DNA from: Promethearchaeota archaeon
GTDB lineage: Archaea; Asgardarchaeota; Lokiarchaeia; Sigyniarchaeales; SOKP01
Length of the DNA: 32,000 nt
NCBI GenBank assembly: GCA_030606485.1
Contig: JAUWGH010000004.1
Span: forward strand, 300,001-332,000
Direction of reading: 5' to 3'
Below are positions 4,030 to 8,275 of the stretch, one piece after another (within the stretch, counting starts at the first letter, position 1; each line of letters opens with the position of its first letter). The notes under the pieces are model-generated. The model did not search any database. It saw only the letters and a list, made by a program, of their open reading frames with translations, and was not told the origin of the DNA. A program made the position numbers and the translations under genes.

Positions 4030-6810
4030 TTATTCTAAAATTAGAACAGGTTTTCCAGGTAATGCTTGTTTAGCTTTTTTATGGTCAATTTGATCTTCTA
4101 AAAATATTTCAATATTACATTTAAACTTATCCTGAAAAGTTGGTTTTATTTCATTAAAAAAGTCCATTTCATCTTTTGATGTTAGGACTATTTTTGAATA
4201 TGTCCTAAGATTTTGTAAAATATTATTGGTGATTTGATTTATTTGTTTCCCAAATTTTTTCAATTCAGCGTCCTGCATAACTGATTTCATAATTTCTCCT
4301 TGATCTTTAGATTTTTCAATCAATGGTATTAATATAGAAAACAATTTGTATTTCCATTCGGTTGCAATTACAATTTTAATCAAAGAAATTTTTTGATCCT
4401 TTAAAATTTGTATTATATTTTTTACATCATCTATTGTGTTGTTCATTAAATTCCATTTAAAATCGTTTTCATCTGTTAGTAGATTTTTGTTATAGGATGG
4501 CCAAGTAGATATACTTAAGAAATCTTTATGACCAAGCATTTCCCATAATTCTTCTGTTATGTGTGGTATAAATGGATGTAAGAGCAGAAGCAATTTTTCT
4601 TGACATTCTTTATAGAGATGTTCAATAACACCATTTTTTTTATATTCTTTCAAATTTGGAATGAATTGAACAATTTCATTTATAGCATCACGTATTGCTA
4701 GATTATTCATATGCTCTGTAACAAATTTTATAGTCTTATTCAATTGGAATTCTATTAAATCGTCATTAATATTCCTTTTTTTCCTTATTTTCTCTAGAGA
4801 CTCTGTAAATAAATTCCATAAACCAGATACAAATTTATATGCAAAACCAACTCCTTGATCAGACCATTCCATTCCTTTCTCTGGACTTGCTCCGAATAAA
4901 ATGAAAAATCTAGTTGCATCTGCCCCATATTCATTCATAATTCCAATTGGATCAACGGTATTTCCTAGAGATTTGCTCATCTTAGCGCTTTTTAGAATAT
5001 ATTTCGTTCCACATCGTTTACATCTCTCATCATGCATTTCTGCTTTCATCGCAAAGGTATTACATTTTGAACAATATGGATGTGCTTTATTAATCATACC
5101 ATGTGTAAATAATCGTTGAAAGGGTTCATCATGTGAATGTAGCCCAAGATCACGCGCTACTTTTGTAAAAAATCTTGCATAAAGAAGATGCATAATTGCA
5201 TGTTCTATTCCACCAATATATTGATCAACATTTCCCCAATAATCAACAATTTCCTTTCTATATGGTAAATCTTTTACATGAGGATCACAGAATCTAAAAA
5301 AATACCACGAACTATCAACAAAAGTATCCATTGTATCAGTCTCACGCCTCCCTGGTTTACCACATTTTGGACATTGACAATTAATGAAAGATTCAGAAGT
5401 TTCTAAAGGGTTTCCTTTTCCAGTAAATTTAACATCTTTTGGTAGTTCTAATGGTAAATTCTCATAAGGAACAGGCACAACTCCGCAATCATCGCAATAT
5501 ATTATTGGTATTGGGCATCCCCAATATCTTTGACGGGAAATTAACCAATCCCTTAACTTATAATTAACGGTTGCTTTACCCAGCCCAATTTTTTCTAACT
5601 TTTTTGTTATCGCGTTAATCGCGGTTCGATTATCCATCCCATCAAATTCTTCTGAATTTACTAGGATGCCATCTGCCATATAAGCTCTTGTCATTTTATC
5701 CTCATTTAATTCATAATCAGGTGGTTGAATAACAACTCTAATCGTGATATTATATTCTTTTGCAAATTCAAAATCACGTTGGTCATGAGCAGGAACCGCC
5801 ATGACTGCACCTGCCCCGTATTCATAAATGATAAAATTTCCAATATAAATAGGAACTTTTTCTTTTGTCATTGGATTAATCGCATATTTTCCGATAAACA
5901 TCCCTTTTTTATCAACCTCAACATCCGTTCTTTCAAATTTATTCTGCTTCATAACATCAGTATAAAAAATTTCAAAATCTTTTTCATATTCAGTTCCTTT
6001 AACCCATTCGCGAACCCAAGGATGTTCTGGAGCAAATACCATAAAAGTTACTCCATAAAGTGTATCAGCTCTAGTTGTAAATATGTCGATGGTTCTTTCT
6101 TCTCCCACAATTGGGAATTTAATTATCGACCCCTCCGACCTCCCGATCCAATTTCTTTGCATAACTTTAACTTTTTCGGGCCAATCAACATTATTTAAGC
6201 CATTTAACAATTCTTCGGCATAAGATCTTATTTTTAAAAACCATTGGGTCAAAAATTTTTGTTCTACTTCTGAATTGCAACGCCAACAGTGACCACCTTG
6301 AACTTGCTCGTTAGCCAACACTGTTGCACATTGAGGGCACCAATTAATATAACTATCTTCCCGATAAGCAAGATCTTTTTCAAACATTTTCAGAAAAAAC
6401 CACTGGTCCCATTTAAAATAATTTGGATCGTGGCTATGAATGTCACGAGTCCAATCATAAGATAATCCTATGCGTTTTTGTTGATTTCTCACGATATCGA
6501 TGTTTAAATTGGTCCATTCCTCCGGATTCACTCCCTCGTCAATTGCGGCGTTTTCTGCAGGTAATCCGAAAGAATCATATCCCATGGGATAAAGTATTTG
6601 GAATCCGCACATTCGTTTGAATCTAGTAAATGCATCGCCAACAGTATAATTACGTAGATGACCTATGTGAAGTTTTCCAGAGGGATAAGGATACATTTCG
6701 AGTATATAATACTTTTTCTTTTTAAGATCTTTTTGTACTTCGAATATTTTTGCTTCTTCCCATTTCTTTTGCCATTTCTCTTCTATTTTTTGGGGGTTAT
6801 AATCATTCAT
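4030..6810 (-). CDS. leuS: Leucine--tRNA ligase, bacterial-type core with archaeal-type C-terminal domain
   Basis: LEMYPYPSGKLHIGH (HIGH), GYDSFGLPAENAAI, CP1 editing TTRADT and AVPAHDQRD, DWLISRQRYWG, YIGGIEHAIMHLLYARF, KMSKS, C-terminal ALPGKPVLILE. AGGA lies 4-7 nt before the ATG. Confidence 0.97.
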   Translation of the reverse strand: MNDYNPQKIEEKWQKKWEEAKIFEVQKDLKKKKYYILEMYPYPSGKLHIGHLRNYTVGDAFTRFKRMCGFQILYPMGYDSFGLPAENAAIDEGVNPEEWTNLNIDIVRNQQKRIGLSYDWTRDIHSHDPNYFKWDQWFFLKMFEKDLAYREDSYINWCPQCATVLANEQVQGGHCWRCNSEVEQKFLTQWFLKIRSYAEELLNGLNNVDWPEKVKVMQRNWIGRSEGSIIKFPIVGEERTIDIFTTRADTLYGVTFMVFAPEHPWVREWVKGTEYEKDFEIFYTDVMKQNKFERTDVEVDKKGMFIGKYAINPMTKEKVPIYIGNFIIYEYGAGAVMAVPAHDQRDFEFAKEYNITIRVVIQPPDYELNEDKMTRAYMADGILVNSEEFDGMDNRTAINAITKKLEKIGLGKATVNYKLRDWLISRQRYWGCPIPIIYCDDCGVVPVPYENLPLELPKDVKFTGKGNPLETSESFINCQCPKCGKPGRRETDTMDTFVDSSWYFFRFCDPHVKDLPYRKEIVDYWGNVDQYIGGIEHAIMHLLYARFFTKVARDLGLHSHDEPFQRLFTHGMINKAHPYCSKCNTFAMKAEMHDERCKRCGTKYILKSAKMSKSLGNTVDPIGIMNEYGADATRFFILFGASPEKGMEWSDQGVGFAYKFVSGLWNLFTESLEKIRKKRNINDDLIEFQLNKTIKFVTEHMNNLAIRDAINEIVQFIPNLKEYKKNGVIEHLYKECQEKLLLLLHPFIPHITEELWEMLGHKDFLSISTWPSYNKNLLTDENDFKWNLMNNTIDDVKNIIQILKDQKISLIKIVIATEWKYKLFSILIPLIEKSKDQGEIMKSVMQDAELKKFGKQINQITNNILQNLRTYSKIVLTSKDEMDFFNEIKPTFQDKFKCNIEIFLEDQIDHKKAKQALPGKPVLILE

Positions 6811-6894
6811 ATTTCCTTTTATTCCATTCCATTGTTTTTATTAAAATTATCCACATTTTTTCAATTTTATGAATTCTTTTTTTCAATGCTTCTT

Positions 6895-7018
6895 CGAACC
6901 TTTGAGCTTTAATTCTAAAGATATTTGCTGGAGATTAAGAAAGAACAAATCCATAGAAATTATTTATAGAAAAGAAGGCTCAGGTTCGTTCTCTCTCGAA
7001 TTAGAGCACCAATAAGAG
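6895..7018 (-). promoter_or_regulatory. Structured 5' leader of leuS with mutually exclusive helices (candidate attenuator)
   Basis: Hairpin 7018-6993; helix 6988-6978 with 6907-6895; competing helix 6997-6983 with 6952-6937; U-rich tracts at 6977-6968 and 6949-6937. All paired by hand. Confidence 0.65.
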
Positions 7019-7081
7019 TACCACTACTAAGAGTAATACAAATAACAATGCATTTTGTACTTTATTCATCAAGAGAGACAT
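7001..7081 (-). CDS. Putative leucine-rich leader peptide of leuS (MSLLMNKVQNALLFVLLLVVVLLLVL); alternative start at 7069
   Basis: ATG at 7081 and TAA at 7003-7001. 11 of 26 codons are Leu and 6 are Val; the last 15 codons are 9 Leu, 5 Val and 1 Phe. Same strand as leuS, ending 190 nt before its ATG. Confidence 0.7.
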   Translation of the reverse strand: MSLLMNKVQNALLFVLLLVVVLLLVL

Positions 7082-7104
7082 TATGGTAAATATTATAATT
7101 ACTA

Positions 7105-7112
7105 CTTTTAAA
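7105..7112 (-). promoter_or_regulatory. Putative TATA box for the leader-leuS transcript
   Basis: TTTAAAAG on the minus strand, ending 24 nt before the leader ATG, which is the canonical archaeal spacing for a start site at or next to the ATG. The region is very AT-rich, so chance matches are possible. Confidence 0.45.
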
Positions 7113-7276
7113 GATTATTATAAGATTTATAGGAAATTTATAAATTTAAATTAAATTAAGAGATATTTTTTGAAATTTTCGATGAGGATAATATTAAGAA
7201 GGAGTTTAACCATAATTTTTTCATTTACTTTATATTATTTTTAAATTAACATAATTATTTAATTTTAAAATATTCT

Positions 7277-8275
7277 ATGACGATTGGGAAAATTAGAGTT
7301 TCTATTGGTAGCGCCACGATTTTAGGATTTACTTCCATAAAACTCGAGAGTCCACCTACTACGATTTATATTATGACTTATAAGAAAGGAAAATGCATTG
7401 CAAATTGCGGTTTTTGTCCTCAAGCGAGAAATTCAAACAGTCCAAATGAAAAATTATCGCGAATCAACTGGCCGATTTTTCCTTTTAAGGATTTTTTAAC
7501 CAAATTGAAATATACTGCTTCTTTAAAAAAATTTCAGAGAATTTGTATTCAAACACTTAATTATGCCGAGAATTTGCAAGACTTAATTGAAATTATATCT
7601 GAGATTAGAAAAGTTACCAATATACCAATATCTGTGGCAATTCCTCCAATGTCTAAAGAAAGTTTAAGGGATTTAAAATTGTGTGGAGTACAAAGAGTAG
7701 GAATAGCATTGGATGGCGCAACACAAGAAATTTTCGAAAAAATTAAGGGAATAGGAGTTAATGGTCCGTATTTTTGGCGTTCTCACTTTGATAGTTTAAG
7801 AGATGCTTTAGATGTTTTTGGAAATGGACTTGTAAGCACTCATATAATAATTGGTTTTGGTGAGACCCAGAAAGAAACATTAAATTTAATTACAGAATTG
7901 CATAAGTTTTCTATTTTACCCGGGTTATTTGCATTTACTCCTATTGAAGGGACAAAATTTGAAAATATGATCCAGCCAAACATTAGTCACTTTAGAAAAA
8001 TACAATTAGGTAGATATCTTCTCATTAATGATTACAAGAAATTAGATGATTTTACATTTAATCAAAAAGGAGATATTATATATTTTAATTTAAATAAAAA
8101 AGAATTAAGAAATTTTGTTGATGAGAGTGAGGCCTTCAGGACTACAGGATGTCCGGGTTGCAATCGTCCTTATTATACTTCTAAACCTTCAGGACCAATC
8201 TATAATTATCCACGAAATTTAAATGAAAATGAGAAAGAAGAAATATATAAATTACTAGAGAGATTAGTAAATTAA
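7277..8275 (+). CDS. lipS2: Radical SAM lipoyl synthase subunit LipS2
   Basis: CIANCGFC (CX3CX2C) plus TTGCPGCNRP, matching the TxGCPxC(N/D)RP motif; adjacent to a lipoate ligase gene. The S1/S2 motif assignment is from my recollection of the literature. Confidence 0.85.
   Translation: MTIGKIRVSIGSATILGFTSIKLESPPTTIYIMTYKKGKCIANCGFCPQARNSNSPNEKLSRINWPIFPFKDFLTKLKYTASLKKFQRICIQTLNYAENLQDLIEIISEIRKVTNIPISVAIPPMSKESLRDLKLCGVQRVGIALDGATQEIFEKIKGIGVNGPYFWRSHFDSLRDALDVFGNGLVSTHIIIGFGETQKETLNLITELHKFSILPGLFAFTPIEGTKFENMIQPNISHFRKIQLGRYLLINDYKKLDDFTFNQKGDIIYFNLNKKELRNFVDESEAFRTTGCPGCNRPYYTSKPSGPIYNYPRNLNENEKEEIYKLLERLVN

Follow-up and report, generated by a model that had tools for sequence, protein, structure and literature searches.

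Ribosome-mediated attenuation by leader peptides is a textbook bacterial mechanism that depends on coupled transcription and translation. In the Escherichia coli systems leuL, ivbL/ilvL and pheM-pheST, a short ORF rich in codons cognate to the regulated gene is followed by overlapping, mutually exclusive RNA helices. A U-tract is involved, one design is reused with different codon runs before different amino-acid genes, and an aaRS is among the targets, as with pheST. In mycobacteria, a leaderless polycysteine sORF is the first cistron and its run of codons senses that amino acid to control downstream genes (10.1101/834739). The T-box leaders of Firmicutes leuS/ileS/valS couple aaRS expression to charging of the cognate tRNA through a terminator/antiterminator choice, but bind tRNA directly and contain no ORF. 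In factor-dependent attenuation (tnaC-tnaA, mgtL; Rho-dependent), the position of a ribosome at the end of a 24-30 codon leader decides whether a termination factor can reach the RNA next to the stop codon. No archaeal example of leader-peptide attenuation was found in full-text literature searches.

A 26-codon Leu/Val-rich ORF was analysed upstream of the leucyl-tRNA synthetase gene leuS in a 32,000-nucleotide stretch (the window; contig JAUWGH010000004.1 of assembly GCA_030606485.1, positions 300,001 to 332,000) of an Asgard (Promethearchaeia) archaeon. A sequence-only reading had proposed that this ORF is a cognate-codon-rich leader peptide, on which ribosomes stall when charged tRNA-Leu is low and thereby up-regulate LeuRS. 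The ORF was confirmed as described, and the core of the proposal, a cognate-codon-rich leader peptide controlling leuS, gained strong comparative support, although the interpretation as a whole is only partly supported. The features of the locus are collected in the table below.

Features of the candidate leader and leuS on the minus strand of the window.
Feature	Position (strand)	Description
TATA-like box	7105..7112 (-)	TTTAAAAG, 31-24 nt before the sORF ATG
Leader-peptide ORF (candidate)	7001..7081 (-)	26 sense codons plus TAA; 11 Leu (CTC x4, TTA x4, TTG x3) and 6 Val; stop 190 nt before the leuS ATG
Segment in codons 2-5	7069..7078 (-)	UCUCUCUUGA, complementary to 6999-6990; third possible partner for the start of the P2 5' arm
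Hydrophobic tail, codons 12-26	7004..7048 (-)	Leu/Val codon runs directly before the stop; proposed sensing segment
Hairpin inside the tail	about 7036-7012	Pairs UUA-type Leu codons with GUA-type Val codons
P2 helix, 5' arm	6983..6997 (-)	Starts 4 nt after the stop codon
U-rich tract	6968..6977 (-)	CUUCUUUUCU (U7 in two sister species); in the 30-nt loop of P2 and inside the 5' arm of stem B
P2 helix, 3' arm	6937..6952 (-)	GGAUUUGUUCUUUCUU; most conserved block of the module
Stem B, 5' arm	6966..6989 (-)	Overlaps the last 7 nt of the P2 5' arm and covers the U-tract
Stem B, 3' arm	6894..6918 (-)	A-rich, ending GGUUCGA
Second ORF	6882-6954 (-)	23 codons, overlapping the P2 3' arm; probably not coding
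A-rich/TATA-like motif	6862..6884 (-)	Possible second, leader-independent leuS promoter
leuS	4030..6810 (-)	Bacterial-type leucyl-tRNA synthetase, 926 aa

ORFs of 20-30 codons are very common in this 29% GC genome, and a chance ORF in a conserved spacer was considered. Among 1347 same-strand upstream intergenic sORFs of 15-45 codons in this genome, the leader is one of three with at least 40% Leu, and the only one with a 16-residue window made entirely of L/V/I/F/M/A. There is no second copy in the genome; a weak second model hit (C4:217-323, E = 0.1) is the 3' end of a thiolase-like gene and therefore a false positive. The ORF is kept in three further species of the genus, where substitutions are mostly synonymous Leu or Val changes (pS 0.39/pN 0.08 and 0.22/0.02; pN/pS 0.08-0.22 in frame) and would be non-synonymous in the other two frames. 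Together with the conservation of frame, start and stop across the family described below, this contradicts a chance origin, which is all but excluded. The second ORF, in contrast, has lost its ATG in one species and has a broken frame in another. The four CTC codons to which the sequence-only reading had drawn attention are unusual, as CTC makes up 5.4% of Leu codons genome-wide, but they are not conserved: the nearest species has two, and TTA dominates the Leu runs across the family.

Thirty leuS loci of relatives were examined. Only the closest species of the genus keep the sORF at the same distance, and 25 of 30 orthologous bacterial-type leuS loci have short spacers without it. Within the genus, similarity begins about 50 nt before the sORF ATG, while the upstream neighbours differ. 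No cognate-rich leader precedes 13 other aaRS genes of this genome. A DNA search over the order located the block in a second genus (g11), where it precedes a gene for a 50-aa acidic protein and not leuS. The leader in the window is of the Val+Leu subtype and closest to these g11 leaders, so its position before leuS may be secondary. Alignment of the two genera showed a conserved TATA box, an ORF of 24-26 codons with third-position variation and indels only in multiples of three, a fixed ATG and a fixed TAA.

These first comparisons favoured an independent small gene unrelated to leuS, a reading overturned by covariance-model searches. A first model hit 52 of 135 genomes of the family, and on inspection the weak hits proved to be true homologues with different helix sequences. 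A second model, built from the tail of the ORF and the RNA after it, hit 106 of 126 sampled genomes of the family, with 1-4 copies each, and none of 24 genomes from six sister families of the class. A total of 132 copies was tabulated. No relevant Rfam 15 match was found at E up to 10 in 6300-7700 of the window, nor at gathering score in three related loci, and there are no tRNA genes in the window.

The tabulated copies share a compact anatomy of about 200 nt. A TATA-like hexamer starts at -36..-26 of the sORF ATG in 128 of 132 copies, against 6% for arbitrary ATGs in the same loci. There is no Shine-Dalgarno sequence, which implies a leaderless mRNA starting, in the window, at or near 7081. 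The ORF has 24-30 codons with a polar start (often M-I-S-N-N-T) and a hydrophobic end. Helix P2 begins 1-4 nt (median 2 nt) after the stop, and has about 11-15 bp and a loop of about 29 nt, with a U run of at least four in 103 of 132 copies. In this genome P2 has 15 bp (-16.2 kcal/mol, z = -3.4). In an alignment of 55 copies, 94% of cells of the 14-bp helix are paired and 12 of 14 pairs show changes on both sides, with a covariation score of 0.355 against 0.15 when shuffled and 0.06-0.09 when slid. These counts come from model-fitted alignments of related sequences. In the same alignment, the hairpin inside the sORF tail (columns 7-14 with 55-62) is 84% paired with changes on both sides in all eight pairs, a figure which the alignment of these triplet repeats may inflate.

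A second helix, stem B, joins the 3' end of the P2 5' arm plus the U-tract to an A-rich segment 65-100 nt after the stop. Its median duplex energy is -18.2 kcal/mol and its median z is -3.2, with z below -2 in 95 of 108 copies; in this genome the values are -18.6 kcal/mol and z = -4.1. The U run lies inside the duplex in 108 of 108, and the arm sequences differ between classes. The block of the 3' arm is nearly invariant among species of the genus. P2 and stem B overlap and are thus mutually exclusive. The fold of the whole 300-nt leader is not more stable than that of shuffled sequences (z = -0.7); only the sub-helices stand out. The segment in codons 2-5 pairs with the start of the P2 5' arm in both the MFE and centroid folds. 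This complementarity is conserved only in g11 and in g1, the genus of this genome, and would give a third fold that closes the sORF when no ribosome is on it. Pairing of the mRNA 5' end with a downstream GAGAUCAU segment showed a weak excess over shuffles (mean run 7.2 against 6.3), and that segment is better explained as part of stem B.

As P2 and stem B are the best conserved parts, with a nearly invariant P2 3' arm, the RNA itself might be the sensor, as a riboswitch-like or a protein- or tRNA-binding leader in which the sORF is translated only to load ribosomes or stabilise the RNA. This is considered unlikely. The helix sequences differ freely between classes, so that no conserved ligand pocket is evident, the stop codon is fixed close to P2, Rfam gave no match, and the class-specific tails are kept through synonymous change.

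The genes behind the leaders have a branched-chain-amino-acid theme and start 122-198 nt past the sORF stop. An archaeal-type LeuRS follows in 57 copies (genera g2 and g11), a non-orthologous bacterial-type LeuRS in seven (g1 and g6), the branched-chain aminotransferase IlvE in six (g4 and g6), an acyl-CoA dehydrogenase in two (g7), a pyruvate/ketoisovalerate-type oxidoreductase gamma subunit (PorC/KorC-type) in one (g3), a methylmalonyl-CoA-mutase-type protein in one (g6), a FrhB-TrmB fusion in 15 (g2 and g11) and acidic proteins of 45-68 aa in 42 (many genera). The composition of the tail tracks the downstream gene. Leu is the commonest of the last ten residues in 64 of 64 LeuRS-linked leaders, Ile in 15 of 15 FrhB-TrmB-linked leaders, Val or Leu in the acidic-protein class, and Ala or Val before IlvE. 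The tail in the window has six Leu and four Val in its last ten codons. In the last eight residues of the 57 archaeal-type LeuRS leaders (456 residues) there are 308 Leu but one Ile and three Phe, although the genome is AT-rich; these are spread over 35 distinct nucleotide versions. Single genomes carry Leu-, Ile- and Val-type leaders side by side. The cognate match can be judged only for LeuRS, which probably represents one or two origins. The FrhB-TrmB and small acidic proteins have unknown function.

This specificity also bears on the possibility of an independent small membrane-peptide gene, perhaps similar to the type I toxins Ibs and ShoB, lying next to leuS by accident and with helices serving mRNA stability. 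The peptide resembles these toxins in length, in hydrophobic composition and in its structured mRNA. It has a polar N-terminus followed by 16 hydrophobic residues, its own TATA box and a U-tract 27-36 nt after the stop, its upstream neighbours differ between species, and there is one copy per genome in this genus. However, a membrane helix in an AT-rich genome would not keep Leu, Ile and Val apart in this way, whereas a codon- or residue-specific read-out would. An independent gene also does not explain the downstream gene set, the fixed spacing to the downstream gene or conservation running past the U-tract to stem B. A peptide of 24-30 residues would presumably still be inside the ribosome tunnel at termination. 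This reading is therefore unlikely.

Taken together, the data strongly favour a translation-sensing leader, and the sORF is probably the leader peptide of a cis-acting RNA element controlling leuS, one copy of a regulon-wide element in one family of Promethearchaeia (probability about 0.6). In the absence of RNA data, translation of the sORF, co-transcription with leuS, ribosome stalling, the role of the U-tract and the direction of the response are inferred. In the proposed mechanism, transcription starts at the sORF ATG and a ribosome translates the 26 codons while RNA polymerase moves on. A ribosome dwelling on the terminal Leu/Val codons would cover the stop codon and the first half of the P2 5' arm. 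P2 could then not form, and stem B would bury the U-tract, hiding it from U-tract/aCPSF1(FttA)-type termination, so that transcription runs into leuS. With ample charged tRNA the ribosome would leave, P2 would form with the U-tract single-stranded in its loop, and transcripts would end early. U4-U7 tracts are the archaeal terminator and aCPSF1-binding signal (PMC8716108), and a coupled ribosome is hypothesised to exclude FttA (PMC11616081). The U-tract of this genome is only U4. The A-rich/TATA-like motif between the switch and leuS could also give leader-independent, basal transcription. It is partly shared with a genus member whose leuS has no leader, and similar A-rich/TTTAT motifs sit 55-75 nt before leader-less leuS in other genera, but its promoter function is an inference only.

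The same element may instead act the other way round, with efficient translation giving read-through and stalling giving termination, or the two folds may control translation or stability of the downstream mRNA. IlvE, acyl-CoA dehydrogenase, the oxoacid oxidoreductase and the mutase can serve amino-acid catabolism, which is sensibly induced by plenty, FttA is proposed to terminate when coupling is lost, and no canonical hairpin-plus-U terminator is present. On the other hand, LeuRS is the commonest target, aaRS controls such as T-box and pheST generally respond to shortage, and stem B specifically buries the U-tract, which fits an anti-termination role. This alternative is thus possible, but less likely.

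Compared with the E. coli attenuators, the module is found in an archaeon, on a leaderless mRNA, with the codon run at the very end of the ORF and no sequence or Rfam relationship. It lacks a GC-rich hairpin directly followed by a U run, and no consistent U run follows P2. Since archaeal termination needs only U-tracts plus aCPSF1, this bacterial criterion may not apply, but a U-tract in the loop of one helix and inside the stem of the other leaves the termination step without precedent. The mycobacterial system shares the leaderless first cistron, but is bacterial and Cys-specific, acts through a mechanism of its own and has no RNA architecture in common with the module. The T-box leaders share the coupling of a cis-acting 5' leader to tRNA charging, but no T-box match was found here. 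Rho is absent from archaea, and the factor analogous to that of tnaC-tnaA and mgtL would be FttA/aCPSF1, whose exclusion by ribosomes is still a hypothesis. Somewhat more likely than not, the family runs a regulon of leaderless attenuators in which runs of Leu, Ile, Val or Ala codons couple charged-tRNA supply to LeuRS, IlvE and branched-chain acyl-CoA/oxoacid enzymes. It would be the first ribosome-mediated attenuation system described in archaea, built around U-tract/FttA termination instead of a hairpin terminator. Such a set would provide a natural system for asking whether a ribosome shields nascent RNA from FttA/aCPSF1, and a defined branched-chain-amino-acid regulon, including two unknown protein families, in organisms that live by amino-acid fermentation.

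The acidic proteins, which have no Pfam or NCBIfam match, are the commonest gene behind Val/Leu-type leaders (about 140 nt after the sORF stop in loci L125-L136) and share motifs such as KYLDY..F.P.E and a C-terminal D/E-K-x-I-A-W. In g11 this gene is followed by fwdA. All Ile-type leaders precede a 4Fe-4S + FrhB_N/C + TrmB-wHTH fusion protein of unknown role (for instance locus L174, 378-1829), and in two genomes the next gene looks like a MeaB/ArgK-type GTPase. The LeuRS of the window (TIGR00396 leuS_bact, 976 bits) is the only one found in this genome, and its nearest non-Asgard relatives are Smithella/Syntrophaceae at 55-57% identity. Many relatives in g2 and g11 carry two LeuRS genes, a bacterial-type one without a leader and an archaeal-type one with a Leu-rich leader.

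In JABUBO010000441.1, the sORF (100% nt) and leuS codons 1-17 (bar one substitution) match this genome, while the spacer differs at several sites and the rest of LeuRS is only 69% identical, which points to a recombination breakpoint or a chimeric assembly. A 98%-identical strain was found in three public runs, which consist of contigs, probably of DNA, and say nothing about expression. This strain appears unchanged between 6855 and 7085, the switch and sORF, whereas 15 of its 40 differences over 2 kb are packed into the 49 nt around the leuS start (6806-6854).
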